Part shown: piece by piece, positions 4,824-48,781 of the stretch
Position numbering within the stretch: position 1 is the first letter of the stretch
Layout: each line of letters starts with the position of its first letter
Source: Escherichia phage V18
Sequence record: NC_041937.1
Length of the DNA: 64,000 bases
Direction: 5' to 3' (one strand)
The notes under the pieces: generated by a model
What the model was told of the DNA's origin: nothing
Seen by the model: only the letters and a program-made list of their open reading frames with translations
Databases searched by the model: none
Translations under genes and position numbers: made by a program

Positions 4824-5081
4824 TCAGTCCACCTCTTCTTCTCGTTGCAGTTCAAGATACCCGTAGGTCTGGATATCTTCAAGGGTGTGGAAATCCCCAT
4901 CTGCCGCTAAGGCACGAACAACTTGGCACAAAACTTTATGAGGAACTTCATCCAGACCCAGATTCAGTGCAGGGAACACCTTATCTAAGTCAACAAAATA
5001 AACGAACTGTAGCTCACCAGCTTCAAAAGGTGTATCTTCAATAAACATCTTCTCGGCATTAGTCAAGATCTGCACTTTCAT
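4824..5081 (-). CDS. hypothetical protein
   Basis: 85-aa ORF tightly packed with neighbours. Confidence 0.4.
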   Translation of the reverse strand: MKVQILTNAEKMFIEDTPFEAGELQFVYFVDLDKVFPALNLGLDEVPHKVLCQVVRALAADGDFHTLEDIQTYGYLELQREEEVD

Positions 5082-5458
5082 TATTCTGCCTCCTCTTCTT
5101 TTTCTTCGGCGTTAGTTTCAGTGCTACCCCACTCTGGAGTTTCCACCTCGATAGTAAACTCACGCACTACACGGTAATTGCCCATGAGGCGCTCCACTTC
5201 GTCAAGGTTTATGGAGAGGCCATTGGCAACCAGGTCTGCAGCACCCTCTTCTACCAGGTAGTCCAGATTGGCTTCCAAAGCTTCAGGCTCAAACCCTGTC
5301 AATGCAATCAGATAACCTTTCCCTTCATCAGGGAGGACAATACAGCCCAACTGATTTTCTTTAAAAAGGCAGTGACCATCATTATTGATTGGGTGTTCAT
5401 TGCAGTAAATAGCTGCACGATAAGTAACTTTAGACATCGGTAAGGCCTCCTTAGGCAA
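5081..5458 (-). CDS. hypothetical acidic protein
   Basis: 125-aa ORF; ATGA-type overlap with next gene. Confidence 0.45.
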   Translation of the reverse strand: MPKEALPMSKVTYRAAIYCNEHPINNDGHCLFKENQLGCIVLPDEGKGYLIALTGFEPEALEANLDYLVEEGAADLVANGLSINLDEVERLMGNYRVVREFTIEVETPEWGSTETNAEEKEEEAE

Positions 5459-5729
5459 TTGTCATTTTACACTCTTGAAATTTTAACACAAGACGGTGAT
5501 TGTGTCTAGTGTCTAAAAAGATTTTTTCAACCATCAGGCACACGGTATAACCGTCCATCTTGTTAACAACAAAATCTCCAGGGTGAGGGAGGATGTCTCC
5601 CGGGTTGGGGAAACATAGTCCGCTCAAGAAGGCATCGTCGGTGGTAGACTTAATGGATTTCCACACGCTATCTGCCTGAACATTCTCACCCACATAGTAT
5701 ACGCTACCACATGTCTTCATCATAGTCAA
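5451..5729 (-). CDS. hypothetical protein
   Basis: 92-aa ORF (track start is TTG; an ATG two codons in is an alternative start). Confidence 0.4.
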   Translation of the reverse strand: MTMMKTCGSVYYVGENVQADSVWKSIKSTTDDAFLSGLCFPNPGDILPHPGDFVVNKMDGYTVCLMVEKIFLDTRHNHRLVLKFQECKMTIA

Positions 5730-5922
5730 ATCTCCGCGTAAATTAAACTGGAATCAGTATACTTCTTTAATGGGTAAATATCCTGTCCATAGATGCAGTC
5801 ATTAAACACCTCATCTACCCAAAGGCTACACTTATATCCCATCATTTCTAAAACACCCATCTCTTCTTCGGTAAACTTATCACCGCTCTTGCAAGATGTC
5901 AATACCTCATTCTGTACTCTTG

Positions 5923-6609
5923 CTACCTCGAAGCGGTATTGGCGATCAAATACTCCCCTAAAGGGTGTGCGGCATTAAAGATGCACAGTGGGCGGTTGAC
6001 GTAATAGTCTCCAGGTGTATAAAAATTATTGAGGTCTTTCACTAGAACATTCTTATCAGTCACTTCATTTATAACATCATGCATATCGCACATCTTTATA
6101 TGTTTGAGGATTCCATCCCCCATCACAAAATAAAAACTTGCTGAGGCACTTTCGGCATAGATCTTACTAGATCCGTTGTAGTTGTATTTTACTCGGATGC
6201 TAACGGGGGTTTTTCCTGTCGCGTTAGCCATCATCCAAAGAAATGGCAGCTCATACTTCTCCTCTGAGGAAACAAAAGGTGAAGTAGCCAGAGATCGAAA
6301 ACCTCCAGAGAAGTTGAAAGTTACAGAACCGCTCCGGCGGTATGATACCGCGTATTCTACTTTTATATCGACATACCCGTTGGAATAGGTGTGTCCTTCA
6401 TTATCTAAATATGTCCACTTATCAGACCCAGATACCAATCTACGTTCAATCACCTTCATCACTATAGGAATTAGTGGGTTGGTACAAACCGCTTTTGAAG
6501 TAGCTTTAGCATCTAGAGCCTCGTAAATTGCAGAAAGGATATCTCCAGCTGAGAGATTGGTTGTTATATCATGTTGCCACCTGGTGCTAAAACTGTTAAG
6601 ATTTGCCAT
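5923..6609 (-). CDS. hypothetical protein
   Basis: 228-aa ORF, first gene leftward of the divergent promoter region. Confidence 0.5.
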   Translation of the reverse strand: MANLNSFSTRWQHDITTNLSAGDILSAIYEALDAKATSKAVCTNPLIPIVMKVIERRLVSGSDKWTYLDNEGHTYSNGYVDIKVEYAVSYRRSGSVTFNFSGGFRSLATSPFVSSEEKYELPFLWMMANATGKTPVSIRVKYNYNGSSKIYAESASASFYFVMGDGILKHIKMCDMHDVINEVTDKNVLVKDLNNFYTPGDYYVNRPLCIFNAAHPLGEYLIANTASR

Positions 6610-13502: not shown

Positions 13503-14495
13503 TTAACGAGAAAAGGTTGCGTAGGCTTCTAGACGATACTGCTGGTCACCAGGGAACATAACACCTATAGAGGCTGTCCCTAGAATCCTGCCTTCCTTTC
13601 CAGACTCCATTCTGAACCCTACCCATCCTGAACTCCTTGCAGCCTCGATGTTGTCGCTATACCCGAAAGTGGCAAGATCGTCAACACCAGCCCCAAACAG
13701 CAACTGAAGCTGACTTCTAGGAAGCCCTATAATTTCAGGAATATACGCACCAAAGTACACCATCTGCCCTACCTTAGGACCGCTGCCGTACTCCATCGGT
13801 TTGCTTGTAGAGAAAGTCTTCATACCAGAAGTACCTGCCGGATTAGGGTATGCCCCGTTTGTTGCTGTACCTATCCACATTCTCCACTGTGGTGCCATCT
13901 GTTTGACAGTAAACGATGTTGAAGACGTTTTGCGGCCTGCATCATCTGTAACTACAAACCTTATAGTGACATTCCCAGGAGCTTTAAATGTTACCAGTCC
14001 TGTGGTAGCATCCACTGTTGCAATGTTGGTATTACTACTTTCCCAAGTCTTTCTGATTCCTGGCACATTGGAAGGGGTAATAGAAGGTTCCTGCATCTGC
14101 AGTTTACCACCTACAATCCCTATCCCGTTTCCTGGATTATACAACGCACCAACCTCGTCTACAATGTTACCTGCCTTGAGACTGTACTTTTTAGAGAAGT
14201 TGTAAGTGCCGTTATATGTGTGTGTCCCTGAGAAGGTTACATCTGCCTTGCCGTTGGAGATGCAAACCAAAGCATACTTCCTGTCAGGCAACTGTGCCCC
14301 AGTTTCTGGGTGAGTTTTACCAACCTGGAACACACTCGGGTCAGTGGAGTCATGGCTATCACTAATGGAGTTTGGGCCACCCATCAGCTGTGACAAACAA
14401 TTCCTTACCCATGTCCAGTTATTATCACTGGAGAAGTCCACAGTCAAATCGAATACAACCCACTCATTTGGCTTCCATACAGGAGTTGTAATCAA
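13503..14495 (-). CDS. structural protein with bacterial Ig-like (Big_2-type) domain
   Basis: 330-aa ORF; segment ATVDATTGLVTFKAPGNVTIRFVVTDDAGRKTSSTSFTV resembles Ig-like domains. Confidence 0.5.
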   Translation of the reverse strand: MITTPVWKPNEWVVFDLTVDFSSDNNWTWVRNCLSQLMGGPNSISDSHDSTDPSVFQVGKTHPETGAQLPDRKYALVCISNGKADVTFSGTHTYNGTYNFSKKYSLKAGNIVDEVGALYNPGNGIGIVGGKLQMQEPSITPSNVPGIRKTWESSNTNIATVDATTGLVTFKAPGNVTIRFVVTDDAGRKTSSTSFTVKQMAPQWRMWIGTATNGAYPNPAGTSGMKTFSTSKPMEYGSGPKVGQMVYFGAYIPEIIGLPRSQLQLLFGAGVDDLATFGYSDNIEAARSSGWVGFRMESGKEGRILGTASIGVMFPGDQQYRLEAYATFSR

Positions 14496-15175
14496 CTTAC
14501 CAACAGAAGGGTTGGAGACTGTTCAGTGATCAGGGCAGAGTATGCCAGAGTGCCTAACTGCATGGTCTGGCTTGCTGTCCTCACTACCTTAGAATCAACA
14601 TCTGTGAAGTTGTTGATGATTTGGAATGTACCATAAGTGTTTTTACAGGTAATTCTGGCGTTCAGTGTGTCAATCTTCCTCACATCTGCCATAGCAGTGT
14701 TAGACACAGAGAAGTCAGAAGCTCTAGCCGAGTTTGCTGCAACAGCTGGATCAACGTTGAGAGTTGCGTTGAACTGGCAGGCAGGAGTAACCAGTAGCTT
14801 GTTATCACCTATTTGCTTCCATGAAACACTTTGAACAGGGAGATTCCATTTAATACCTGAGAAAACTTTAGCAACCCTTGGTCCCAGAGCTCCAGTCCTG
14901 TTGTCTTTACAGCTCATGGACATGGTGATCGTTGACGGAGTGGCCTGACCAAACAATTGCTGTGCTTTTGCAGAGGACATGGTGTAGAAATTGTCCTTAA
15001 CAAACTCATCAGCCGCTAACGATCCGTCAGATCTCCACCATTGCACCTGGTAGCCTGTCTTATCCCAGCCACCAACCTGCTTCAAGTCCTCCCAAGAGAT
15101 TTCCAGATCCCCAGTGGTAGGTTGATTGCCGCAGTTCCCGGTGTTCCAGATGACCATATTGGGATATCGAACCAC
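14492..15175 (-). CDS. hypothetical tail-associated protein (start uncertain; 94-nt overlap with upstream ORF)
   Basis: 227-aa ORF from track. Confidence 0.4.
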   Translation of the reverse strand: MVRYPNMVIWNTGNCGNQPTTGDLEISWEDLKQVGGWDKTGYQVQWWRSDGSLAADEFVKDNFYTMSSAKAQQLFGQATPSTITMSMSCKDNRTGALGPRVAKVFSGIKWNLPVQSVSWKQIGDNKLLVTPACQFNATLNVDPAVAANSARASDFSVSNTAMADVRKIDTLNARITCKNTYGTFQIINNFTDVDSKVVRTASQTMQLGTLAYSALITEQSPTLLLVS

Positions 15176-16047
15176 GCTGGTTTAACAGACTGCACTGCGT
15201 TAGGTCCTATTGCAGCAGCAAGTTGTTGACCCATCAATACGCGAGTATCTTTCACATAACCCCACTCGATCATAGACCCAGAGTAACCCTCTTTCTTATA
15301 CGCGGATGACCCATTCAAGTGAATAAGTCTACTTGTGCCGAAGTTATACGCCCCACCACCATTATCATCTGCAAAATTGTATATGATTCTATCCCTAATA
15401 TCTTTCCATGCCCTACCGCCAATCTCGTAGTCATGGTCATAGCATCTTTGCAGCGTTGTCCAGCAGATGATTGCCATCCTTCTACCGTTACTGAAGCCGA
15501 AAGCCTGATCGTTAAGCTCTCTCCACAAGTAGCAGTTGGTGGTCCACATGGCTCTGTGAATGTTGTACCAGTTTATAGATTTGGCAGAGTTGTTCCACTG
15601 AGTTCCGGGTAATTCAGGCCATACTGCATTAACCAGCATGTCCTCTGTCCCTGCATCTATCAAGAAGCCTCTCACCTTCTTACCCATACCTACTCTGTCT
15701 TTGGCAATCCATGCGCCAAACAATCTCAGTTTTGGACCGTAAACATCCTCTTCGCGATGCTCAAGAGAAACATACTTTAGATATACCGTAGGGTCACCGT
15801 AGGTGTCGGATATTCTTTTATCCCCTGCATATGGTGAGTCTGCAAACTGGTAGTGCAGAGCAACTTCAAAAGGATGTGTGGATGTTCCGTTTTCTGCAAG
15901 AACTTGCTTCCCGATCAGATCGCATTTAATAATCATCACGACACGTTTGTACCCCCAGGTTAACGGAACAACAAACGGAATCAGGCAGTTCACCAGGTCC
16001 CCAGAATATTGCTCCGGAACAGTTGTAGAACCACTTGTTAGGATCAT
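15082..16047 (-). CDS. hypothetical tail-associated protein
   Basis: 321-aa ORF, ATGA overlap with upstream gene. Confidence 0.45.
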   Translation of the reverse strand: MILTSGSTTVPEQYSGDLVNCLIPFVVPLTWGYKRVVMIIKCDLIGKQVLAENGTSTHPFEVALHYQFADSPYAGDKRISDTYGDPTVYLKYVSLEHREEDVYGPKLRLFGAWIAKDRVGMGKKVRGFLIDAGTEDMLVNAVWPELPGTQWNNSAKSINWYNIHRAMWTTNCYLWRELNDQAFGFSNGRRMAIICWTTLQRCYDHDYEIGGRAWKDIRDRIIYNFADDNGGGAYNFGTSRLIHLNGSSAYKKEGYSGSMIEWGYVKDTRVLMGQQLAAAIGPNAVQSVKPAWFDIPIWSSGTPGTAAINLPLGIWKSLGRT

Positions 16048-18065
16048 AGTTGTTCTTGAAGGTCTGAACCTCGTTTGCCTGTTTCAACAAGAAAACATGC
16101 CTGTCGATCAGCATATCCAGGTTGGTTAAACCACTGATTGCAAGAATAGTCCCGCATATAGTCATAATCAGAGTATTTGTTGTTTGCATCCTCGTTCCAA
16201 CACAAGTTCAGGTTGGTGCCGCCCATGCACACAATATATTCTTCAACGTATTTATCACTTCGGGTGGGAATACCTATGAACCATCTGTTAACAGGTTCGT
16301 CCCAAGCTGTGCGCTCATCTTTAACGCAGATAGCAATCCAGTCATGTGTTCCTGTTTTCTTGCACACATCGCGCTTCATACCGTAGTAGAACTCTTTAGT
16401 ATTTGGCTCAGGTGCGCTTATCAGGTAGCTCCACGCCTGGTCTGCATAGGTTCCGTTGGTGCGAGGGTCATGATCAAAGGCATACATGAGGATCCTTTCC
16501 CCACCAAGATGTTCGCCAAGAGTAACTTTGACATTCACATCGCCGTAACCGTTGCGAACAACATCCATATTGTCAATAGAGATGCCTCTAGGGGTGTAGG
16601 CAATTTTCAGTGAGTTATCCTCACTAGTGCCACCAAGGGTGATCCCTATGTTATTTGTTGTCCCGTCGGCATATCTTACTGTAGCTTCCCAGCGTATTCC
16701 GAAATATCCTGCATCATGGCTAACAATTTTCAGTGTACGAGCACCAGAGTTAGGTTTTCCAGGATCAGGCCAAGGGTTTGGGTGTTCGTGAACAGTCAAC
16801 GATGTCCCGTTTTGTTCATTGACCTGCAACATTTTACCACCTCTGCCGTTTGGGTTGAACTCCCATAAGGCCTGTGTCTGCACCAAGTTATCATAGGTAT
16901 TTCGTCGCTGATTATAAATCTCTTGGGTAACATCATAAGTTACTGATCCAGCATCCATTCTGTGGAGTCTGACCATATACGATGTATCCCCTTCTACTGC
17001 AGGCTGAGCCGCATTCAGCCCAAAGTATACAGTATCATTAACATGGAACTGTTTGTTTCTACCGGCAGTATGCCATTTACCATCAGACGGGTACGCTGGG
17101 ACGATAGTGTTCCAGTTCAAAGTCCTTGTTGTGTGGGTTCTGCCTGTGCCATGTTTGTCATGATAGGTTCTGTTAACATTTCTGTTATATTGGGTAACAA
17201 CAACTTCGTTGGCCCCGCCGTGGTTCCAGTTGGTGGAGAATTGGTAATTTGCATCTGTAACAACCGTGCCTGCAGCATTTACCAGCTCAATCTTGTCAAT
17301 AATGAACGTAGCCCCTTCTGGCTGAGGCTTCAATTTCATCTTGACCGTGTCACCAATGTAAATATTGCTAACGCTGCTAACACCGTTAACGTCGAAAATA
17401 TCATCAACACCCCAACTATCTACCGGGACATTTTTATACCAATTCTCCGGAATCTCTGTGAACCCTTGGCTGTTAAGTCTGCCGCCAAAGAGGTTATTAG
17501 ATCCTGAAAAACTACCACGTGGTATTCCTGACCACCAAAGCTTTCCATTTACCACACAGAATGTGCCTAAGAAACCTTCCCTGTGGATCCCTTGAAAATA
17601 AACGCTTTCTGTCCAACTTACTGGCTCTGTCTGTTCAACAAACTTAGCTGTTGCCAGCGCTCTGTAATGAATAAAATTGGCCCTAGGGTTGTTGTTTGCA
17701 GATTGAGCACCAATATCATTACACAAGTTGCGAGAGAATCCACGATACTGCTTAGTGCCATTGTTGAAGAAAATGCCACTTGTGCCGTACCCACGAGCCA
17801 TTATTACCTCATGAACATTCCAGGCTGTTTCGCTCGGATAGTTTATAGGGCTACGATCCCCAGTGCGGCACTCTCCGAACTTGTTATAGCCAGTAATATT
17901 AAGCTGACCATCATCAAAAAGTATAGCTAAGCTATTTACATAGGATACTGTGTTGCTTGTACCATCACTGTTGTCTATTGGGTATGACAGAACAGCAAGT
18001 TCCTTAATTCCACCCCTCTTATCGAGGAAATGACGACCAAGTTTTAGCAAAGGGATTGGAAGCAT
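16044..18065 (-). CDS. large tail fibre/tailspike-like protein
   Basis: 673-aa ORF rich in G/N/T/S/Y; position in fibre cluster. Confidence 0.5.
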   Translation of the reverse strand: MLPIPLLKLGRHFLDKRGGIKELAVLSYPIDNSDGTSNTVSYVNSLAILFDDGQLNITGYNKFGECRTGDRSPINYPSETAWNVHEVIMARGYGTSGIFFNNGTKQYRGFSRNLCNDIGAQSANNNPRANFIHYRALATAKFVEQTEPVSWTESVYFQGIHREGFLGTFCVVNGKLWWSGIPRGSFSGSNNLFGGRLNSQGFTEIPENWYKNVPVDSWGVDDIFDVNGVSSVSNIYIGDTVKMKLKPQPEGATFIIDKIELVNAAGTVVTDANYQFSTNWNHGGANEVVVTQYNRNVNRTYHDKHGTGRTHTTRTLNWNTIVPAYPSDGKWHTAGRNKQFHVNDTVYFGLNAAQPAVEGDTSYMVRLHRMDAGSVTYDVTQEIYNQRRNTYDNLVQTQALWEFNPNGRGGKMLQVNEQNGTSLTVHEHPNPWPDPGKPNSGARTLKIVSHDAGYFGIRWEATVRYADGTTNNIGITLGGTSEDNSLKIAYTPRGISIDNMDVVRNGYGDVNVKVTLGEHLGGERILMYAFDHDPRTNGTYADQAWSYLISAPEPNTKEFYYGMKRDVCKKTGTHDWIAICVKDERTAWDEPVNRWFIGIPTRSDKYVEEYIVCMGGTNLNLCWNEDANNKYSDYDYMRDYSCNQWFNQPGYADRQACFLVETGKRGSDLQEQL

Positions 18066-19868: not shown

Positions 19869-20135
19869 TTAAGCTTTTTGCTCTTCGTTTTTAACGTGGT
19901 CAGGGTGCTGGCAACCCCACCGGAGCGAGATGAATTTGCTAATAAGCTGGGGGCAAGCTACTGAAGGTGCATATATCCACGCATACCATTCGGGAAGCGT
20001 ATCATTGTACCCCATATGAATAAACACCCCAGTCATCACCGCCATGCCTATGTTCGACCATAGCTTAGATTGGGACACTTTCGTAGGGTCATCAGATGCC
20101 GCAACCAGCCCCCATAAAAACTGAGTTAGTTTCAT
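19869..20135 (-). CDS. small membrane protein
   Basis: 88-aa ORF with hydrophobic segment LWSNIGMAVMTGVFIHM. Confidence 0.4.
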   Translation of the reverse strand: MKLTQFLWGLVAASDDPTKVSQSKLWSNIGMAVMTGVFIHMGYNDTLPEWYAWIYAPSVACPQLISKFISLRWGCQHPDHVKNEEQKA

Positions 20136-20146
20136 TTACCCTCTTT

Positions 20147-21190
20147 TTAAGCATAAGATATAGTGATCCATTGACCATTTACAAGTTTTTGGATAGCACC
20201 TGTCCAGTAATCACCTTGATAAGGGTGTTTATAAGCGTAGTTACCAGAGCACATCACATGTCCAGGGTAGACTCTTGACTCTCTGTAGGTGGTTTTGAAA
20301 CGGTTTGCTATCCTTACATCATCAACCCCTCTGCTGGGCATAGGGATAGTAAGGTTACCACTACCGTCTGCGCTGTTACCATTTACCCTGCGGACCACGT
20401 TTCTTCCACCAACTGTTGCATATTGGCCCCTGACGGTTTCATCGTTACAATCAACTCTTTCACCTATTTGAGCGCTTCCGCAGGATTGTTGTCCGTTAAC
20501 AGTAGCTCTTGGTATCGTGACCGCATTGGCATTTGCAGAGGAACTTTTTGCATCGTTGCATTCAAGATTTCCTTGGATAGCCAGTCTTGCACGGTTGGCA
20601 GTTATAGCATTGAGCTTCATAGCCGAAAACACAGGCTGCCCACCAGAAGGTTGAAATCTCCAACGGAACCCGTCTATTTGGTGAGAAGGATCATCAAGAT
20701 CTGTGCCGTCAGCACCACCGATGTTGTCCATAATCCAGAAATCCATTGTCGTCTTGTCTGGAGTTATGGTGGTATATATTGCCGCACTGTCTGTTGACGC
20801 AGATGCAAACTCGATTCTTTGAAGACCTAAAGTTTGAGTCTGAGTCATTATGTCTCCCGACTTGTCAATATATAGATCGTCCATTTCTTCAGGCGAGTAT
20901 ACATTGAGAACTTGACGTGCAGCAGCTTTGTCTGGAACGTCTGCTAGATTATTAGTGACCCTTAAGAATCTATTATCCCATCCTGGGACAACATCTTCTG
21001 TTAAATGCTTTAACCACGCAGAAAGCATGTGAAGTTCAAAGTTAACAACTTCACATGCCACTCTTTGTGTCATATCCCAACCTTTCAATCTCTCTTCTTT
21101 TTTTGGTTGAGACTTATTCAATTCTCCCGTATTTTCAAGCACAACATCCTGATTGGCCCAAATATCAAGAGGGATAACTGGTTTAGTCAT
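20147..21190 (-). CDS. short tail fibre/receptor-binding protein (paralog B)
   Basis: 347-aa ORF; N-terminus MTKPVIPLDIWANQD and C-terminus QKLVNGQWITISYA shared with 22205..23244. Confidence 0.55.
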   Translation of the reverse strand: MTKPVIPLDIWANQDVVLENTGELNKSQPKKEERLKGWDMTQRVACEVVNFELHMLSAWLKHLTEDVVPGWDNRFLRVTNNLADVPDKAAARQVLNVYSPEEMDDLYIDKSGDIMTQTQTLGLQRIEFASASTDSAAIYTTITPDKTTMDFWIMDNIGGADGTDLDDPSHQIDGFRWRFQPSGGQPVFSAMKLNAITANRARLAIQGNLECNDAKSSSANANAVTIPRATVNGQQSCGSAQIGERVDCNDETVRGQYATVGGRNVVRRVNGNSADGSGNLTIPMPSRGVDDVRIANRFKTTYRESRVYPGHVMCSGNYAYKHPYQGDYWTGAIQKLVNGQWITISYA

Positions 21191-21279
21191 CGCGTTCTCC
21201 TGAGAAAATTCCTTAGGACTATTTTAACACTTTAGAGAACAAAATGCAAGAACGGAGTCCTTTCCGTTCCGACCTTTGT

Positions 21280-21594
21280 TTACCTTTTACTATGCTCTAC
21301 GAGCATGTGCAAAATCTTTTGTACATCAGCTCGGATGCCGGAAACATCTGTCCTGACATCCTGCTTAAGGTCGTTAATATCGGCCTCTAGCTTGCTTAAC
21401 CGGGTCTCGATAACGGAATCAAGTCTATCTTTTGTAACCATACTGTTTTTCACTAAGATGAGGTCTTTCTCCAGTTCATCCAACCTCTTGGAAATGCCTT
21501 TCCATTTGGTGTGCCACTGGTTGAAAGCCCATACACAGATCGGGACAACGGTACCCATGCAGATACCGTACAATGCCGCCAAATCCAACTCCAC
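21280..21594 (-). CDS. small protein with N-terminal transmembrane segment and coiled coil
   Basis: 104-aa ORF; hydrophobic LAALYGICMGTVVPICVWAF followed by heptad-like region. Confidence 0.4.
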   Translation of the reverse strand: MELDLAALYGICMGTVVPICVWAFNQWHTKWKGISKRLDELEKDLILVKNSMVTKDRLDSVIETRLSKLEADINDLKQDVRTDVSGIRADVQKILHMLVEHSKR

Positions 21595-21605
21595 AACACC
21601 TCCTC

Positions 21606-22190
21606 TTAGAGGGTAGGTCGCTCCGGGAAGAAAATGTCAGGGGCTTTAGATGTATCTATTTCAAGAAGTTTTACCCTGTACATTTTCAAATCTCTGATGT
21701 TGCGTTTCTGGTCATCAGTAAGATCATATTCAAGGTCAATCATGTCTTGATAGGCACCAATTCTAGCAGTAGCCCAAGCAAGTTCTGTCTCTATGACACC
21801 CTCTGCCTGTTGAACAAAGAATTCATTGTCTGTGACAAATTCATCACCAACTAAACGCAAAGCGTCGTGGTGAAGCATAATGTTTTCTGGTACCTCTTCT
21901 TTTTTGGCGATAACCACACGAAGACCTGGAGCAGGCCATAAGGCATCAGGTTCTTCTGTAGATGTCTTAAGAATTCCCTTCTCGTCAACAAGTAGGAAGA
22001 TACACCCCGGATTTTCTTGTCGTAATGTTCGTGACTGCACATACCAATCGCCATCATCATTACGTAAAAAATACCCAGTGTATGCGGTGTAATCCTCAAC
22101 CTCTTGAGGGGTCAGCTCCTTGGTTTCCTTGTTGGCGTAGTATTCGCCAGATCCCGGTTGGTAAAGTTTAAACTCTTGAAGTATTTTCAT
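21606..22190 (-). CDS. tail fibre assembly protein (Tfa-like chaperone)
   Basis: 194-aa ORF; C-terminal YRVKLLEIDTSKAPDIFFPERP resembles the conserved Tfa C-terminus; sits between fibre genes. Confidence 0.6.
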   Translation of the reverse strand: MKILQEFKLYQPGSGEYYANKETKELTPQEVEDYTAYTGYFLRNDDGDWYVQSRTLRQENPGCIFLLVDEKGILKTSTEEPDALWPAPGLRVVIAKKEEVPENIMLHHDALRLVGDEFVTDNEFFVQQAEGVIETELAWATARIGAYQDMIDLEYDLTDDQKRNIRDLKMYRVKLLEIDTSKAPDIFFPERPTL

Positions 22191-22204
22191 GCTAGTCCTC
22201 CGAT

Positions 22205-23244
22205 CTATGCATAATTAACAGTGATCCATTGACCATTTACAAGTTTTTGTAAAGGTCCTGCCCAGTAAGTTGAACCACGCATCTCTTTTTTGTCACCGAA
22301 ATGCCAGCCTGTGACAACGTAGCCGTTGCGGATTGGAGATTCAGAAACGCCGTCCACAAGTCTTGCACCGATTCTGATGTCTTGCACACCCGTCTGCGGG
22401 ATAGTGATCGTTACATCACCGTTACCGTTAGCCGTCACTCCGTTCACAGAGCGAACCACATTTCTGTTACCTACAACACAGTGCTGGCTTCTTACAACCA
22501 TACTGTCACAACTTGCACCACCATTAACATATACTGACCCAGCCGTCAACTGACTAGCCACATTACAGTTGGTGAATGTTGCGGTATTGCTGATAGTAAG
22601 GTTATTGCACCTCATGTTATCGACAGCTTCAACATTGCCTACCACTTTCAACAGCGCACGGTTAGCAGTGATCGCGTTAAGGTACATCAAAGTGAACTCT
22701 GGATTAATATCCGGCTGAGTTGGCTGGAATCTCCAACGAAACGCATCTATTGTAGATGTACCACCATCATCAAACGACCCAATATTATCACTTAACCCAA
22801 AGTCGAGAGTTGTCTTATCTGGGCCAATAGTTGTCTCTATCCAAGCCTTATCTGTCTCGGCAGCTTTAAAGTTGATACGTTGCAAACCCAATGGGCCTGT
22901 CATTGTATCACCTGTAACTTTTACATACCTGGCGTCTGCCTCTTCCTTGGTAATAATCCCAAGGTTTCTACGGGCAACAGGAATGTTCAAAAGATCACTC
23001 AAGTTATTATCACGTACCAGATAACGGCCTTCTTGAGCGGGGATCTGCTCGTCAGCAATGTATTTTGCCCAAGTTCCGAGCATATTGAAAATATAGTTAA
23101 GTTCTTCACATGAGGGCTTTTGACCAAGATCCCAACCTTTTCTCCACAAATCATCAATCGGGCGTAGCTGTTCTGTCTGTGGGTGTTAGGCAGAACCTGA
23201 TCCTCCTCTGCCCAAATCTCTAATGGAAAACTAGGTTTTGACAT
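22205..23244 (-). CDS. short tail fibre/receptor-binding protein (paralog A), apparent frameshift near 23180..23190
   Basis: ORFs 22205..23149 and 22999..23244 in different frames; together they align with paralog B from N-terminal PLxIWA motif to C-terminal KLVNGQWIT; shift maps to a CCC run. Confidence 0.5.
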
Positions 23245-23256
23245 TTTATCTCCTGA

Positions 23257-25329
23257 TTATGAGAAGTCTGGCGGGACAACATCTTCTACATACCCTTTCA
23301 GAGCAACCTGCCCCATATGAAGCACGGTAGAATCTCTAGCGGTAACAGTGATGCTGTCAGACATTACTTGCGGGTATGCCCACACATACTGTTTTACCTC
23401 AGGGTATCTATACTCTATAGTTGCCATGTTTCCGCAAATACATCTCCATAAAAATTCTTGGTAATTCCTAGTTGGGTCGTAGCCATATACCGGAGCAAGC
23501 TCTTTACTAGGAACGAACCCTGCAAGGTATTGTATTTCAGACGGTTGCCAACCTAACTTAACGATAGGTATGTTTACAGACTCTTTTGCCTTTTCAATAC
23601 CTCCCTGCATCACCCAATCGTAGCACTCGGTGCAGAAGAAATCAAGAGCACCTGCTTCCTTTTTATATTGGTCAGCAAGGTTCAGCTTTTGTGTAAGCTC
23701 AGTTTCCATAATGGTTGGGAAAAACAACAAAGCTGTCATCTGAGCTGATGCAGCGTGTGCCTTTATTGCCTTTGAAATAGCCGCAATACGAGCGCCAAGC
23801 TTACCACGACAAAATGCTACATACTTGTCGTAAACACCGCCAGTTTTAGGATCGTCAATAGTCCCAATATCTAATGCATACTCACCTGTCTCATCATAAA
23901 ACGCCTGCTTTGTAGGATAATCATAAATACAAGGTCTACGAGTATCGGTATTGTACCACCACCACGGTTCACCAACCTGCATAATCACTGGCAGGTTGTT
24001 TCTCATAGCGGCTGATGCAAAATTCTTAAATACTGCAGTAAGGAAATTCATACCCTCTTCAATGGTTGGAGACAGGAGGTAGCTACAAGGTGTATACCCT
24101 GTTTTAGCGTAGTTATCGTTCCAGTCTCTTTGGGTCCATTCCAACGGGCAGGCATCGCTGAAAAGCTCAAAACTTACAGATTGCATAACGTCGAAGTTAT
24201 GTCGTTTGGCATTGTACATAAAATCATCATGCCATTTATAAGCTGCAGCGTTTAGCGCTCCTGTTCTGTTTATAGACCATTGAGTTCCTGACCATGTGTA
24301 GTCATAATAATGACTCATACCAACATAATGGTTTATGGTTCCGGTATAGCCCAGACGCTTGATATTGTTCAACACCCTTAAAGGAGATACGTTCCACATG
24401 TCGTCATATGCGGTGCAGATCCCAACGTCGTGCTCTCTCACCTGAATATTGTTAAGTTGCATCATTTTCCAGCCTGTGTCTGGCTGAAGCAGATCTAGGC
24501 GCAACTCACACTCTACATTTTCCGTTCTCGGGTCTGTGCTATTACTTACCCAGTCTTTAGGCATGAGCGGTATTAAAATCCTTCTCACCTGCCGAGGATC
24601 AACACCCATCATGCTGTTATTCTGGTCCATCCCGACGCAGTCCTCAAAATCAATATGAATTTCTGCAACATTCTTATCCTCTGAGATGCTGACAGCATAT
24701 TGAGCTAAAGGAACATAGATGATTGTGCCATCAACAAGGTCTACAGTCATAATCATCTTTTCAGGAGTGGAGAAGTTGCTGGCGTTGGTTATTGACATTC
24801 TGAACCAAAGCTTGGTGTTTCTCATCTCATAGTGATCATCGAACCCAATACCGAAATGGTCATACTTGTCAACTGTTTCCCAAATGCACCCAGCCATACC
24901 TCCATATGTTCTTGACACTAAACGGTTAATACAACAGTTGTTATCTGCAACAATACAGGTACTTTCAGTCTGCTGAGTAGTTGTAACCCAATACCTTGGG
25001 TGGAACATTCTCTCCTCGACAGTATCCCAAGATATCCTGTCAAGATTCTCATCTGAAACTATTGTACATTTCGCCCTTTGTGTCCCAATCATCACCCCTT
25101 GGGATTTTGATGAAAACTCCATAAAGAAGCTTCTTGGCAACCTATTGGGTAATTTGTCAACAATTTCCACCGGGATCTCAATACTGGTTGCCCCAATTGG
25201 GATAGTTACATCGCCCTCAACATGATTATAATCCCTACCAGGAACAGCAGTATCCTGAACTGTTCGGTAATGAAACTGTGCGGCCATTGTAGAGTAATCA
25301 CGGTAAGGTTTAAAAACAGCTGTTGCCAT
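23257..25329 (-). CDS. large tail-associated protein with Calx-beta-like N-terminal domain
   Basis: 690-aa ORF; DYNHVEGDVTIPIGATSIEIPVEIVD resembles Calx-beta motif. Confidence 0.5.
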   Translation of the reverse strand: MATAVFKPYRDYSTMAAQFHYRTVQDTAVPGRDYNHVEGDVTIPIGATSIEIPVEIVDKLPNRLPRSFFMEFSSKSQGVMIGTQRAKCTIVSDENLDRISWDTVEERMFHPRYWVTTTQQTESTCIVADNNCCINRLVSRTYGGMAGCIWETVDKYDHFGIGFDDHYEMRNTKLWFRMSITNASNFSTPEKMIMTVDLVDGTIIYVPLAQYAVSISEDKNVAEIHIDFEDCVGMDQNNSMMGVDPRQVRRILIPLMPKDWVSNSTDPRTENVECELRLDLLQPDTGWKMMQLNNIQVREHDVGICTAYDDMWNVSPLRVLNNIKRLGYTGTINHYVGMSHYYDYTWSGTQWSINRTGALNAAAYKWHDDFMYNAKRHNFDVMQSVSFELFSDACPLEWTQRDWNDNYAKTGYTPCSYLLSPTIEEGMNFLTAVFKNFASAAMRNNLPVIMQVGEPWWWYNTDTRRPCIYDYPTKQAFYDETGEYALDIGTIDDPKTGGVYDKYVAFCRGKLGARIAAISKAIKAHAASAQMTALLFFPTIMETELTQKLNLADQYKKEAGALDFFCTECYDWVMQGGIEKAKESVNIPIVKLGWQPSEIQYLAGFVPSKELAPVYGYDPTRNYQEFLWRCICGNMATIEYRYPEVKQYVWAYPQVMSDSITVTARDSTVLHMGQVALKGYVEDVVPPDFS

Positions 25330-27516: not shown

Positions 27517-27586
27517 GTCACTCCTCCGGTATGAAAATCTCTACAAGGTATTTTACCAAATTTTGTAACAATAGTCAATCTGAGCA

Positions 27587-27621: not shown

Positions 27622-30365
27622 TTAGTCGTGAGACTCGTTCCAAGGTCCCTGGAAGCTAGAGTTTGAACGACTTACTATCACAGTAGGACAGGATATTGTA
27701 ACACCTGTTACAGCTGAGGTGGACCAGCGTGTGTAAATTTCAACAATAATGTCTATGGTTTGTTCACCCAGCCCTGTTATCCCGACTGCACACATACCAT
27801 CGTTATCGTTACCATACTTCTTGCCGTTAAGCTTAAAGAAGAATGTTACGTTCTTGCCTTGGCCTTGAACGTTATCCACGTATCTCCATCTCCAACGGCA
27901 AACCTGCTGCCGAGAGTTGTATACTGGAGGACAGTCACCGTAGGTCTTGTGTGCAACTATTGCACCTTCGAACTGGTTAGCACGGATAACGGAAGCTTCT
28001 ACACGTCCACGGAATGTACCTCCTGTTGCATCTATGGTTCCTCTAAAGCTACCATTGTTGGCATAAACATCTCCACGGAAGGTACCACTGGTGGCGTTAA
28101 CTGCCCCTGTGAAGTTACCTGCACTAGCGTTGATGTTACCTTTCACCCACACATCCATAAACTGGGCGTGCCCGTTCTTGTTAATATACCAACCGTATTT
28201 ATGGTACCCGTTGCCATCGTAGTTGTTTGACGAAATCTCTTGTGCGATCTTGGCAGAGGAGATCGTGCCATTCTCTATAAAAGCGTCTTTCAAGAACGCT
28301 TGGTTGTTCTTGATTGCGAAAGCAAGGGTTGCTGTTCCATTGCCGGGGTTGTATACCGCAAAATTGTTTGCACTAACCATGAAGTAGGATTGAACTTGGC
28401 CCCCAGACCCTTCCATCCCCAACTGGATACCTGCAACATATTTAAGCAGCGTGCAGCGCATTCTACAAACTGAGAACTACCAAAAGCGTTTGTGGTTCGA
28501 ATATACCAATAATAAACCTTATCGTTCTGCAGACCTTCAGATGTCCAAGTTGAACCAACACCCATACGGGTGGCGTTTGAAGTAACGGTTGCATCGCTGG
28601 TGTCGGGCAACCTTGTCATACCAGATGTCCAAAAGTCATACTGGGTGCTTACACTTGCTAAATCCCTGCTGTGTGGAATCAAGGTGATAGCAAAGTATCC
28701 CTGCTTAACCTCTACAGAAACAGGAGCTTCAGGTGCCTGAATGTTAAACTCGCAGTACGCTTCTGGAGATACACCACCTTTATAAGATGTTGCAACCACG
28801 GTTGCTGTGTATGATCCTTTGGTCAAGCCTTCTACTCGGACAAACTGCTCAACTGTCTGTGCTGTCCAAACAATCTCTCCGTTCTTTCTTACCTGCACAA
28901 TATTTTGAGCGTAAGTTCCAACGTTGTCCCAAGCCAAAACACCGTGAGTTACTTCCCCGGCTTGGAGAACGGAATATCTGAAGTTTTGCGGTTGAGCTAC
29001 ACCAGATGGAGATATCGGAATATCTACATTGCCAGAATCCGGAAGTTGCCCTGTGGCATCATTCCACTCTTTAGCATCTTGACGAAGTTTTACCTTGACA
29101 CCACCCTTTTTGGTAAACTCCCATTCAAGAACCCTCATTTCTTGGCCCACTATACCAATACTTGGAAGGTTCATTGTAACGTAACGACCAGGTTTAAATT
29201 TAAAACCCCGCATATTGCAGGTGACTTCAATAATCCTGCCAGCTCTAGCGCGTCTTAAGAAGATTGCAGAAACACGCTGAGCTTGATAAGGGCTGGTAAC
29301 AAAGCGATAGTCTATATCGATTATCTTTCTTTCTCCATCCTTCTCTATCCACTCTGGGACAAACACTGATGGAAAATCTGTTTCAGAATACCCTTTAGTC
29401 GGACTGGTGAATCTGCCAGTTATTGTGTTGGATCTTTTGTCAAACGAGGCTTCCGGATAGATCTTGACCTCACCACAGACACAGTCCTCACTCAGTGTCA
29501 TTGTTGCTGGACCATAATATGCACCTACCAGCAGTCCATACTTACCAGCTACATAACTGAGATCTGCACCACAAGCTTTCAGCATTTCTGCCATAATACT
29601 TGCTGGAGCCTCATCCATGTCGAACTCACCATTGATGGTGTAACGGCGCTCACTAGTTCCGTCCGCGTTTCTTACCGCCTCATCGCATATGTTGGCAGCC
29701 TCCTTGAAGGACTCCCAGTTGATGGTTTCGTCAGGACATTTAAGGTACGTTCTTAAATAATCTAGAATCACCAAGGCCGCGTTATTGGTATACACCTCTT
29801 TACTGATACGAGGATCATAGCATTTTTTACCAACCTTGACGAGTGTAACGTTTGGCAACCCAAAAGGGAACTTGTTAGGGTCAAACCTGAAGCTGGCACG
29901 TAGCCAACTGATCCCTCTACCTATCATGTCTGGTGACCACGATGGGCAGTGTGTACCCATGAAAGGATCAGATGTTTTTCTGTCGTTATGTAGCTCCCAC
30001 GATACCAAATCTCCATACGAGGAAATAGGATTACCGTCGATAAGTATGTCCTCTATACCTTCCAGAGGGTGATTGGCAAGAACAATAGCACAATGGAGGG
30101 TTCTGTCGCTATCCTGCTCCAAAAACGCAAGCAATCCAGATGTGCGTGTCTTTCCATACACTACAGAGCAAGGTGCAGCAGAAGATCTGAGAAGCTTTTG
30201 TCTATCTTGCTGACTTCTGTAAGATTTGTTGCCCTCAAAAATCTTATCCAAAGTTCTGGTGGTCACAGTGTTCAGGCTGTCAGCCAGAGCTGCCTTGGAT
30301 GCGTTCCAGTCATAACTTGAAGATCTTGCAGAAGCAACGATGTTATCAATCATTGCAATTGGCAT
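27622..30365 (-). CDS. lambda J-like tail tip/host specificity protein, interrupted by a frameshift near 28440..28465
   Basis: 28290..30365 carries APEAPVSVEVKQGYFAITLIPH and YYWYIRTTNAFGSSQFVE, closely matching my recollection of lambda J; 27622..28461 in another frame continues with KYVAGIQLGME... and fibre repeats. Confidence 0.6.
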
Positions 30366-31932: not shown

Positions 31933-31994
31933 TGTGCCTCCAGGTTAAACAATCATGATAGTTATTTTACCAGATTTTAAGTTAATACGCAATA

Positions 31995-32031: not shown

Positions 32032-33064
32032 TTACTTCAGTTTCTCTTGCAACCCAGTAACAACCTCTGTCAATTTTTTAACCTGCTCCTCAAGGGCGGT
32101 TATTTTATCATCCTGCTCCCTGCAAACCTGGACAAGCAAGCCTGTTACAGCTGCGTAATCCACGCTGTAGAATCTTTCCTCTGTTATCAAAGGAGTTCCA
32201 TCTTGATCAGGGTTTGGGATTTCCTTTCTTTGCACGAAAGAGCTAACTGCTTCCGGCAGCGCTTCAAGCACCTCTTGTGCTATAACACCTGCATAAGGCA
32301 TACCATTCTCTTTCAAGGTGTAGGTATAACCCTTCATCTTACGGATAGCTTCTAACGCATCAGGAATAACAACTATGTTATCTTTCAGGTCTCTGTCAGA
32401 ACTCTGATTGACAGATGTGCAATTCACAGCACCGTTTACAGAAAGATATCTTGATTTATCCGGCAAGGTACCGCAATGCCATACATAAGCTGATTGAGAC
32501 TCGTCAAGAACCTTAAACTCTAGCACGTTTGGACGAGTCCCTGCACTGCCGTTGCCCCAATAATGCTGCCATCTGGAAAGCGTAGTTTCCAGAAAATGCC
32601 ACAGACAACCCGCCAACAACCATTGAACCTTCAGGTCCGTTGACGTTGCCAGCCAGTATTTTGGATGGGTTGTTAGGCCCAAACTGGTTGTTCCAGTCTG
32701 CACCAGTATGACATACAAAACCACCCGGTGCTGAGAAAGTGCCATCTTTGTTGAAGTTGTAGAATCTATGAGCTGTGCCTACAACATCGCGAACGATAAC
32801 TTGACCAGCTTCCGGAGTAGATCTGAACTCTGCCTGGCCTTGCAGTCTTGCACCATTACCACATTTAGAGGTAAAGGTGTTGTTGATCAGATCCTCTGTT
32901 CCTTCTGATGCAGCTTGGAACCCTGCGTTAGAGAACAGTGCTTTTCTAGTGGTCTGACTACCAGGACAAATGTAGTCAATACCGTCTGCCCAAAGCTCGA
33001 CTTTAGGCATGTTCATTTTGCTCATCACTGCATAGCGTTCAGGAGTCCCCAGGTAGTGCCACAT
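32032..33064 (-). CDS. tail fibre distal segment with C-terminal intramolecular chaperone (peptidase S74-like) domain; internal frameshift
   Basis: ORF 32513..33064 and ORF 32032..32745 overlap in different frames; C-terminal SSDRDLKDNIVVIPDALEAIRKMKGY...VIAQEV matches the S74 autoproteolytic chaperone signature. Confidence 0.5.
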
Positions 33065-33163
33065 AGTTCCACCACCAGTGTAGAAACCTGATGTTCCTTT
33101 GAACTCAACCAGAGGTCTGGTGTTTGTTACATCATCACCTTTGATTGCAAGACTTGGAAAGAA

Positions 33164-34963
33164 TCACCTCTGTCTGTCCAGCCACCAGTTCTGTAGTGAC
33201 ACTGTAGTGTAGCACAGTTCATTGGGTCCCCCTACAGTCCTGGCACTGGTACCACCACAAGCTATCGGTAGTGGTTCCCATTTGGCTTTCCGGTTGTTAT
33301 AAACACCCCATTCCAAACTGCCGTTACCGGATTCGTCCATCCCGCCATCCCAGATGACCATCTTGGCGGCTTTCTTAGATCCCCAGAAACCTCTTTCTGC
33401 TCCTGAACTGCGGATCCATTCTCCAAGTCCCCAGTTTGCCAGCTGACCGTTCAGATCACCAACCTGCATATATTTAGGACAATCTAAGACCCCATCCTCA
33501 CGGAAGCCTAAATATCTATGAGTTTCAGATCCTTTTGCGCCTTTGTGCAGGTGGATTGTCAACCAAGCCTTATTGTCGTTTCTTACCTCAGAGTAGATCC
33601 TATACCCATGCTCAAGGACACCGTCAGCGCTGTATTTGTCCCCGTTAACAATACCTGATGCTGACTTAACATCAGCAGAACTTTGAGACAGGTAAAGGTG
33701 CCCAAAGGTAGGGGAGTTTCTAGACCCGAGACCGATGTGTGCTCTAAAGGTATCATCGTTACGAGGTCTGACCATCGGCTGCCATGCAGTCCACTGATTT
33801 GTGTTGGCCTGGTAGGTTCTCAAATACCAAACATCTACGTTAGAGAATGGATAGTATTCCTGACGACAACCTGTACCGCCGTTAGCATTGTTCTGCCAAA
33901 CAATCAAGTGACCAGCACCAGAACCTGCAGGGTAACCATTTGCCTCAGTTGCATAGGCAGTCATCGGCTGGTAGTACACACCATCCTGATTACCAGTTAA
34001 GTTATTGATATTGAAATTTGGCTCAAGGGCTGCACGTTGCTTATAGAAAGCCCCCAAGTTAATGCGTGAACCTGCGGCATCCCTGGCACCTGTGCCGCCT
34101 TGCTCTATAGCAAGAGGTTGCCACGAAGCTGTTTGTTGGTTCCACATACCCCAACGGCCTGTTGCATCAAGCTGCAAGTACCCTGCTGTGTTTAAATCAT
34201 CTCCAGCACGGATAACTGTTCTTGTTGGGTTGTTTGCCTCTAGGCGTTTAAATTCATCACGAAGTGCTATTCTTTTTGTTGTTGCTACACCGTTGGTTAC
34301 TGCAATGGTATACATGGCTCCGGTGGTAGCGCCACGGAAAATACCATCAACAGTTGTAGTATCACGACGAGATACCACACCATTCAGAAATTTTTCACCA
34401 GCTGCTACAGAAGGGTAGTTGGTAGTTCTTCCCTCTTCAATAACTGCAGGGCCAACAAAGTTATCAAGGTGAATAACATCGCCTACAGTGTGCACTGTAC
34501 CAAAATCTACACGCTGTGCAAGGGCTTTAGCATCGTTAGCTGTCTGAACAGTAACATCCATTACATCCTGGACAGACTGCCCTTCGGCTGTCATAATCAT
34601 AGATGCGCCAATGGTAGATTCCAGCTCCTCCCTTAAGGACGGATCTGTATATACCATCCATGCAGCGTCAGTAATCCCACCATCGGAGTACGGTGAAGAT
34701 AGTGCAGGGACAGTGTGTGGAAATTCGCCTTTCCAACGCAGGTAGAGGTCTTCCTCTTCGAAGTAGGCAAAATCCATTGGGCCGTTTAACTTACCACCTT
34801 CCTTAAAGGAGATTACATGAGAAACAGTCCCATCCACATGGACAACATCGCCAATTTTTACACGACGAGTCAGGTCTGGTTGTTGAACAACCAGGTAATC
34901 ATCCTCTGTCACTGCGGTAGTGGCAGGAAGAGATTCAATTCTGACAACTTTAATATCAGCCAT
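33164..34963 (-). CDS. tail fibre protein (N-terminal anchor plus shaft)
   Basis: 599-aa ORF; N-terminal DDYLVVQQPDLTRRVKIGDVV shared with 37598..38266; ends at a TGA that is in frame with the downstream fibre segment. Confidence 0.55.
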   Translation of the reverse strand: MADIKVVRIESLPATTAVTEDDYLVVQQPDLTRRVKIGDVVHVDGTVSHVISFKEGGKLNGPMDFAYFEEEDLYLRWKGEFPHTVPALSSPYSDGGITDAAWMVYTDPSLREELESTIGASMIMTAEGQSVQDVMDVTVQTANDAKALAQRVDFGTVHTVGDVIHLDNFVGPAVIEEGRTTNYPSVAAGEKFLNGVVSRRDTTTVDGIFRGATTGAMYTIAVTNGVATTKRIALRDEFKRLEANNPTRTVIRAGDDLNTAGYLQLDATGRWGMWNQQTASWQPLAIEQGGTGARDAAGSRINLGAFYKQRAALEPNFNINNLTGNQDGVYYQPMTAYATEANGYPAGSGAGHLIVWQNNANGGTGCRQEYYPFSNVDVWYLRTYQANTNQWTAWQPMVRPRNDDTFRAHIGLGSRNSPTFGHLYLSQSSADVKSASGIVNGDKYSADGVLEHGYRIYSEVRNDNKAWLTIHLHKGAKGSETHRYLGFREDGVLDCPKYMQVGDLNGQLANWGLGEWIRSSGAERGFWGSKKAAKMVIWDGGMDESGNGSLEWGVYNNRKAKWEPLPIACGGTSARTVGGPNELCYTTVSLQNWWLDRQR

Positions 34964-45183: not shown

Positions 45184-45299
45184 TTTATAGCATCCTTATT
45201 AGTCATGTTGTGCACCATATTTGTGTATTTTACCATGATTATGGTGCATTGTCAATTTAACCTTTCAAGCAATTCAAGAACGTGTGTCAAAACCATAAA

Positions 45300-48740: not shown

Positions 48741-48781
48741 TAATGTATTTTACCACAAAGATACATCAAAAGCAACAGTTT

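Follow-up and report, generated by a model that had tools for sequence, protein, structure and literature searches.

Short-tract gene conversion as the best explanation for an exact 3' repeat in the twin short tail fibre genes of an rV5-like phage

Earlier papers have already described the duplicated short tail fibre locus of rV5-like phages. In rV5 itself the two fibres were published as paralogues at 42.3% identity in 2013, and both of them (gp30 and gp33) were detected in virions along with gp32 (Kropinski et al. 2013, PMC3606486). The reading of this locus as two paralogous short tail fibres plus a chaperone, homologous to Mu GpS/GpU, was published in 2021 with the BASEL Vequintavirus phages (Maffei et al. 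2021, PMC8594841). For Mu Tfa, a variable N-terminal domain that binds the fibre and a conserved C-terminal domain that drives trimerisation are described in the part of PMC9608196 that cites North et al. (2019). In Pectobacterium phage phiTE, a Vequintavirinae relative, cryo-EM placed the N-terminal residues of the short tail fibre in a trimeric joint to the baseplate wedge subunits, with residues 3-92 docking on the wedge (PMC11972413). Seunavirus (PVP-SE1 gp46-gp44) and phi92-like phages carry an orthologous cassette beside the same baseplate genes. It holds one fibre only, followed in Seunavirus by Tfa and then a 104-aa gene, and a 4-TM membrane-protein gene occupies the place of the second fibre.

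The window analysed here, a 64,000-nucleotide stretch of Escherichia phage V18 (NC_041937.1), is that of an rV5-like myovirus of the genus Vequintavirus. The locus in question is the orthologue of rV5 gp33, gp32, gp31 and gp30: fibre A, a Tfa chaperone, a 104-aa membrane protein and fibre B. Compared with the rV5 and BASEL loci, its gene content and gene order are the same and its nucleotide identity is 98%, and the window's fibre A alone has a private single-base deletion; it is no new kind of system. We consider it probable that three things are combined here: the known rV5 twin short-fibre module, a footprint of gene conversion at the 3' ends, and a frameshift in fibre A that is most likely a sequencing error.

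All features lie on the minus strand. Fibre A (22205..23244; orthologue of rV5 gp33) has 346 aa in relatives and is split into two reading frames in the window. The chaperone gene (21606..22190; gp32) starts 14 nt past the fibre A stop codon; fibre B lacks a dedicated one, leaving the locus with a sole Tfa. That a Tfa-like chaperone lies between the copies, as the first-pass annotation had it, is borne out by profile matches to PF02413 (Caudo_TAP, E = 9.8e-12, residues 121-192) and phrog_136 (E = 9.6e-37); a single-sequence search of PDB sequences with Tfa gave no meaningful match. Next comes the 104-aa protein of unassigned function (21280..21594; gp31), whose gene keeps its place immediately behind Tfa in Seunavirus as well as in all two-copy lineages. 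It had been noted as a small membrane or coiled-coil ORF, and this agrees with what we find: it belongs to the conserved phrog_5345 (E = 1.5e-48), its PVP-SE1 homologue is annotated as a membrane protein with one TM segment, and an N-terminal hydrophobic segment is followed by a coiled-coil-like region. Fibre B (20147..21190; gp30) is intact at 347 aa. An 88-aa gene follows it (19869..20135; orthologue of rV5 gp29, phrog_1322 E = 2.7e-32), and its product is annotated as a membrane protein in relatives. Neither the fibres nor the small ORFs had a match in Pfam or NCBIfam.

A consensus scan marks a terminator-like hairpin with a T-run (21249..21270) in the gap that separates fibre B from the 104-aa gene. 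A candidate late promoter, TGTTAAAATA (21220..21229), precedes the start codon of fibre B by about 30 nt and matches 9 of the 10 positions of the rV5 late-promoter-like motif TGGTAAAATA. This motif of rV5 late genes was described previously (PMC3606486); it has 19 matches against 6.2 expected, with exact copies just upstream of late genes, and we infer a promoter role for TGTTAAAATA from its sequence and position.

The arrangement is stable. A 3.6-kb region is common to 115 phage records at 90-99% identity, and the order NCTSP-like fibre, fibre A, Tfa, 104-aa gene, fibre B, 88-aa gene, 581-aa fibre is identical in the annotated relatives examined (JohannBauhin, FFH2, rV5, FV3 and others) and in Logan/ENA contigs. 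The 3.2-kb arrangement is unchanged in all 112 full-length relatives, none of which has a deleted or hybrid form. IMG/VR offered no more than four close loci, not enough for a population analysis.

The two fibres are clearly homologous to each other: BLASTP aligns 321 residues at 43% identity (E = 3e-85). Fibre B covers the whole of phrog_4465 (positions 1-342 of 342, E = 8.7e-166), and the 314-aa part of fibre A matches positions 33-342 of the same profile (E = 9.5e-151). Fibre B is 98-99% identical to annotated short tail fibre proteins of relatives, which also annotate an intact 1041-nt CDS at the fibre A position. The first-pass annotation had described shared ends around a different middle. 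The ends are indeed shared, but the similarity is not confined to them: identity is about 44% along the whole length, with patches of 9-11 identical residues per 15 throughout, and it is weakest at about aa 206-250 and 291-325.

Domain assignments follow from sequence comparison with solved relatives. Residues 1-83 of fibre B match the N-terminus of the phiTE short tail fibre (PDB 9CUY chain c, E = 2.1e-8), and the family profile extends this homology to phiTE residues 1-121 (E = 5.8e-25). The N-terminal 85-120 residues or so common to both fibres would thus be the domain docking the fibre trimer onto the baseplate wedge. The phiTE fibre has a similar C-terminal motif as well; it is a single, flagellotropic fibre of 554 aa with a coiled coil and Ig-like domains, whereas the window encodes two fibres of about 347 aa. 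At the other end, the C-terminal ~60 residues of both fibres align to residues 438-502 of Mu GpS (5YVQ_A, E = 1.7e-10 with the family profile), including P-x-Q-K-x-[VI]-N-G-x-W, and probably form a GpS-type fibre tip. As in Mu, where GpS is paired with GpU (TfaMu, PDB 5YVQ), a Caudo_TAP chaperone gene stands immediately downstream of a fibre gene, here fibre A. Outside the tip, the fibres cannot be aligned to GpS beyond weak repeats. Unlike Mu, the locus has no invertible G segment, inverted repeats or second chaperone, and its fibres, in direct orientation, are read as co-expressed rather than alternated. On similarity to the T4 gp12-type short tail fibre, Kropinski et al. reported HHpred probabilities of 98.4 and 97.7 to PDB 1PDI (PMC3606486); neither phmmer nor a small profile recovered a gp12 chain from PDB sequences. 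An AlphaFold2 monomer of fibre B, built on a 9-sequence alignment, was unusable (mean pLDDT 32.4, no residue above 50).

Towards their 3' ends, the two genes share an exact repeat. The 29-mer reported earlier does occur exactly twice, at 20162..20190 and 22220..22248, where shuffled sequences expect 0; the exact run is in fact 30 nt (20162..20191 in fibre B, 22220..22249 in fibre A), encodes QKLVNGQWIT in both copies and is embedded in a longer direct repeat, 63 nt at 84% identity, that runs up to the stop codons. These shared sequences lie 2058 nt apart in the same orientation. An assembly artefact can be dismissed: both copies are present in JohannBauhin, Phage 203, FFH2, rV5 and others. Within the genus the exact run between A and B varies from 14 to 30 nt, with 14-22 nt in FV3, NHEP1, JEP1 and JES2013, so that homogenisation has not been continuous. 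An AAT/AAC polymorphism common to both copies within the genus is also suggestive of exchange; we do not rely on it, as recurrent transition could yield the same pattern.

The best explanation of the repeat is that the two copies have overwritten one another at their ends. Among residues identical between A and B, 55 codons are the same against 54.0 expected, so synonymous sites are saturated, and against that background an exact run is unexpected: conditional on the protein sequences and the phage's codon usage, a run of at least 29 nt has P = 3.5e-4. Four further, divergent two-copy lineages have identical A/B tracts of their own at the 3' end (29, 30 and 110 nt long), which differ in position or have synonymous bases that co-vary; the earlier suggestion that the conserved ends recombine is well supported by them. 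In one, L020, a 29-nt tract sits at the same place as in the window; in L023, a 30-nt tract is shifted in position; in L022, the exact tract extends over 110 nt with sharp borders. Segment matrices cluster the 5' bodies according to paralogue, but the 3' tracts according to genome. Such lineage-specific tracts point to recurrent gene conversion, not to a switch between alternative modules. The 30-nt repeat would then be the footprint of short-tract conversion between the 3' ends of the paralogues, a process that appears to recur in this phage group. The window's own lineage shows 5 differences to the B orthologue of L022 and 6 to the A orthologue, which favours neither direction of conversion there. 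No report of short-tract 3' gene conversion between these paralogues was found in the searchable literature.

Two other origins of the repeat have to be weighed against gene conversion. Purifying selection on QKLVNGQWIT, together with codon bias and chance, might produce 30 nt of identity without any DNA exchange. The peptide motif is indeed family-wide, with variants in PVP-SE1, muut, the phiTE short tail fibre and Mu GpS, and the runs of 14-22 nt mentioned above mean that copies within the genus are not always identical over the tract. We nevertheless judge this very improbable: the long run stands out while the remainder of the gene is at random expectation, A and B of L022 encode the same peptide with differences at 8 synonymous sites, and the three synonymous bases by which L020 departs from the window are present in both of its copies. 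Across lineages, the two paralogues of a genome vary together in their synonymous states within the tract, a pattern that counts against selection on the peptide alone. Even harder to credit is that the repeats are recombination or regulatory sites, serving fibre switching or deletion, Mu/P1-style inversion, a diversity-generating retroelement, or a shared promoter or RNA element. They do lie equidistant upstream of the next gene in both copies, and the fibres are related to those of Mu, a phage that switches fibres by inversion. However, the repeats are direct, which makes inversion impossible, and no matching inverted repeat was found; we thus reject an invertible host-range segment of the Mu G or P1 C type. 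A reciprocal crossover between direct repeats would delete the chaperone gene, the 104-aa gene and the fibre B body, and none of the 112 full-length relatives is so rearranged. The nucleotide sequence of the repeat is not conserved in L019, L022 or the FV3 group; a sigma-70 promoter within it was rejected with no such site called on the coding strand; and a retroelement target is made unlikely by the repeats, since mismatches in the 63-nt repeat involve all bases rather than adenine specifically and the repeats are homologous positions of paralogues. Both fibres also occur together in virions. The same evidence speaks against the swapping of alternative receptor-binding modules proposed in the first-pass annotation: in rV5 particles the two fibre proteins were detected alongside each other and the chaperone (PMC3606486), the arrangement never varies among the full-length relatives, and natural exchange homogenises the 3' ends, not the central parts. 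Both fibres would be built into the same virion instead of serving as alternatives.

The frameshift in fibre A raises a separate question, that of a genuine mutation against an error. The gene measures 1040 nt here instead of 1041, and its frame breaks after codon 25, in the window only. A frameshift had been noted at a CCC run; it is present in the sequence, but its placement at that run (23181..23183) is off by about 15 nt. A slip there is rejected by alignment with three relatives, which puts the lost base ~14 nt downstream, in CAGG: on the coding strand, AACAGGCTACG has lost one G beside window position 23168 (deletion site 23167..23168). Each of the 114 matching phage records has 87 nt aligned where the window has 86, none at 100%, and the deletion is also listed in the comparison with rV5_ev147. 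Since the ORF is unbroken and one base longer in all 114 relatives, a programmed ribosomal frameshift is rejected. The isolate might still be a natural gp33-null phage relying on fibre B alone, given that the base was lost from a two-base run (GG to G) rather than a long homopolymer, and that related genera manage with one short tail fibre. We find this unlikely: no relative carries the deletion, and the window has at least 12 such single-base losses in all, disrupting 9 conserved genes, among them those for the tape measure (at 43560), tail completion and tail assembly; a viable lytic phage could not bear them all. Most likely, the fibre A frameshift is a private single-base deletion due to sequencing or assembly error, and frameshifts in this window should not be read as biology without checking reads.

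Comparison with the single-fibre genera suggests how the module was built. Both in position and in closeness of sequence, fibre A is the orthologue of the one fibre that Seunavirus has, with 51% identity to PVP-SE1 gp46 versus 43% for fibre B. Fibre A, Tfa and the 104-aa gene would therefore form the ancestral cassette, with fibre B added later and apparently provided with its own late promoter. In the few lineages available, fibre tails ending in NYA or SYA pair with a 194-aa Tfa, and those ending in QTL with a Tfa of 205-208 aa, 46-47% identical. We infer that conversion tracts are tolerated or favoured because one chaperone must fold both fibre tips. A stronger version is possible, though we hold it only tentatively: recurrent 3' conversion may be selected, keeping the co-assembled tips compatible with a single Tfa, so that the tips and the fibre-binding domain of the chaperone evolve as a unit while the rest diverges freely.

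The sole new detail at this locus is the repeated exchange of short 3' tracts between the paralogues, seen in several lineages. Such repeated exchange is a small, clean case of concerted evolution in phage receptor-binding genes, and it could guide the engineering of fibre/chaperone pairs.

The short-fibre locus and its surroundings (3.6 kb) match 115 phage records at 90-99% identity, the best at 98.8%, and with few exceptions these belong to Escherichia phages from the genus Vequintavirus (rV5-like myoviruses). Some 16-20 'Campylobacter phage' records (MG065635, MG065662, MG065672 and others; host C. jejuni) are ~98% identical to the E. coli Vequintavirus locus and look mislabelled or contaminated. 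Across the relatives whose annotation was compared, the minus-strand gene order is identical: a 690-aa fibre that combines Calx-beta and N4-gp65-like TIM-barrel domains (rV5 gp34), the 346-aa fibre A (22205..23244; gp33), the Tfa chaperone (21606..22190; gp32), a 104-aa protein (21280..21594; gp31), the 347-aa fibre B (20147..21190; gp30), an 88-aa membrane protein (gp29) and a 581-aa fibre (gp28). The chaperone proposed in the first-pass annotation is borne out by matches to PF02413 and phrog_136. The 104-aa ORF is a member of a conserved family; its homologue in PVP-SE1 carries the annotation of a membrane protein with one TM segment. The 690-aa gene (23257..25329), directly upstream of fibre A, is absent from that position in Seunavirus; its N4 gp65-like part comprises 'non-contractile tail sheath' N-terminal and TIM-barrel domains (PF23844, PF23845), and the annotation in relatives is a lateral tail fibre bearing glycosidase and deacetylase domains.

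Fibres A and B are clear paralogues: formal protein alignment gives E = 3e-85, with 43% identity over 321 residues. To describe them as sharing their ends and differing in the middle is an overstatement. Similarity spans the full length; in several patches 9-11 of 15 residues are identical, and the similarity is weakest at residues ~206-250 and ~291-325. The observation holds, but its core has already been published and most of it is known. Kropinski et al. (2013, PMC3606486) reported that the 347-aa gp30 of rV5 is 42.3% identical to gp33, that both resemble T4 gp12 by HHpred and that the virion proteome contains gp30, gp32 and gp33; they also suggested that two LPS chemotypes might be recognized. 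Maffei et al. (PMC8594841) described the rV5-like fibre and chaperone genes as homologues of the single phi92-like locus and ultimately of Mu GpS/GpU, and noted little allelic variation between genomes here. The evidence does not support reading the pair as alternative modules that can be swapped.

The fibre-family profile hits two proteins of known structure: the phiTE short tail fibre, over its N-terminal 121 residues (PDB 9CUY chain c, E = 5.8e-25), and Mu GpS, over its C-terminal residues 438-502 (PDB 5YVQ, E = 1.7e-10). As phiTE residues 3-92 form a trimeric joint attached to the baseplate wedge subunits (PMC11972413), the N-terminus common to both fibres is, by homology, the baseplate anchor. 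The C-terminal motif P-x-Q-K-x-V/I-N-G-x-W-x-T belongs to the Mu-type fibre tip.

By tblastn, two copies occur in Vequintavirus only; a single copy is present in other Vequintavirinae and in phi92-like phages. In Seunavirus a lone fibre gene is followed by Tfa, the 104-aa gene, a 4-TM gene and the 88-aa gene, so that Vequintavirus fibre B occupies the place of the 4-TM gene. The single Seunavirus fibre is closer to fibre A (51% identity) than to fibre B (43%). This makes fibre A plus Tfa the ancestral cassette and fibre B the later arrival. The Seunavirus gene at the position of fibre B encodes a 157-aa four-TM membrane protein (PF26221 Phage_phiTE_239; 5497..5970 in L004, 6958..7431 in L024). 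Two consensus matches, a terminator-like hairpin (21249..21270) and a late-promoter-like motif (21220..21229, 9/10 match to the rV5 motif), precede fibre B and suggest that a separate late transcription unit begins with it. The rV5 late-promoter-like motif TGGTAAAATA is enriched in the window (19 hits with at most one mismatch, 6.2 expected), among others at 27549..27558, 31963..31972, 45226..45235 and 48746..48755 (minus strand); exact copies lie a short way upstream of late structural genes.

The 29-mer noticed at the fibre 3' ends occurs exactly twice, at the positions first given for it, with no occurrence expected by chance. The exact run is in fact 30 nt (20162..20191 and 22220..22249) and lies within a direct repeat 63 nt long (84% identity) that runs up to both stop codons. 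It is no assembly artefact, since both genes carry the repeat in independent genomes. Elsewhere the synonymous sites of the two genes are saturated, as identical residues use 55 identical codons against 54.0 expected from codon usage. When codons were redrawn 20,000 times for the two fixed protein sequences, an exact run of at least 29 nt had P = 3.5e-4. Within the genus the run varies from 14 to 30 nt, and the tract is not always perfect.

Divergent relatives found by protein search share the two-copy architecture on their contigs. In L020, whose fibres A and B are 87% and 78% identical to those of the window, the two genes have a common 29-nt exact tract in the same place, with three synonymous bases changed (CTG, GTC and CAG replacing CTT, GTA and CAA). 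In L022 the two copies are identical over a sharply bordered tract of 110 nt (A 865-974, B 880-989) and differ at 8 synonymous positions in the QKLVNGQWIT codons; L023 has an exact 30-nt tract just upstream of the window's position. Segment-wise identity matrices group the genes by paralogue over the first ~300 codons and by genome in the 3' tract; in L019 and L022 the tract of the B copy is of A type. Mere conservation of the peptide, or a functional site at the nucleotide level, might also keep the 3' ends alike; codon statistics, lineage-specific tracts and by-genome grouping together exclude both and show recurrent short-tract gene conversion between the fibre A and B 3' ends. Exchange through the conserved 3' ends, as had been supposed, thus does occur. 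Neither a deleted form nor a hybrid fibre gene was found among 112 full-length relatives, as expected because reciprocal crossover of the direct repeats would lose the chaperone gene. L022 (2921..3961, 5001..6056) and L023 (2872..3912, 4949..6013) are uncultivated (ENA metagenome, Logan assemblies); their fibre B variants are only 46-50% identical to rV5 gp30, with C-terminal 45 residues of fibre A type.

Fibre A does contain a frameshift, but not at the CCC run to which it had been assigned: the gene has 1040 nt against 1041 in relatives, and alignment with them places the missing base, one G of AACAGGCTACG (coding strand), beside window position 23168, ~14 nt downstream of that run. An 86-nt query over the site matched 114 records, all 114 aligning over 87 nt and 0 at 100%; the deletion is private to the window sequence, and a conserved programmed frameshift is therefore rejected. 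Compared with rV5_ev147, the window lacks single bases at 12 or more sites within nine conserved coding sequences; among the sites that break conserved genes are 6805, 6918, 11689, 11758, 15120, 25997, 31440, 39914, 39971, 43560 and 47502. The deletion at 43560 leaves the tape measure gene as two ORFs (42060..43559 and 43556..44395); genes for tail completion, tail assembly and polynucleotide kinase, an anti-sigma-like gene and a large Ig-domain fibre gene are broken as well. Since a lytic phage could not bear all these deletions, the fibre A frameshift is most likely just one sequencing or assembly error among many. The window has the look of an error-prone assembly. Its three largest lateral tail fibre genes (13503..18065, 27622..30365, 32032..34963) are shorter than in rV5_ev147 (~3 kb less over 25 kb), split into several ORFs and down to 84-94% identical, probably through known allelic variation mixed with frameshift errors.

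In sum, the locus has two paralogous fibres with a common baseplate anchor and a common Mu-type tip, it has one chaperone gene, and the paralogues exchange 3' tracts; both fibres and the chaperone are part of the virion, as reported for rV5. In Tfa, according to the part of PMC9608196 that cites North et al. 2019, a variable N-terminal domain binds the fibre and a conserved C-terminal domain drives trimerisation. Over the few lineages compared, fibre tail (NYA/SYA versus QTL) and Tfa type (194 aa versus 205-208 aa, 46-47% identical) change together; this fits, suggestively, a shared-chaperone constraint on the tips. We propose that conversion may survive in the 3' region because one chaperone must handle both tips.
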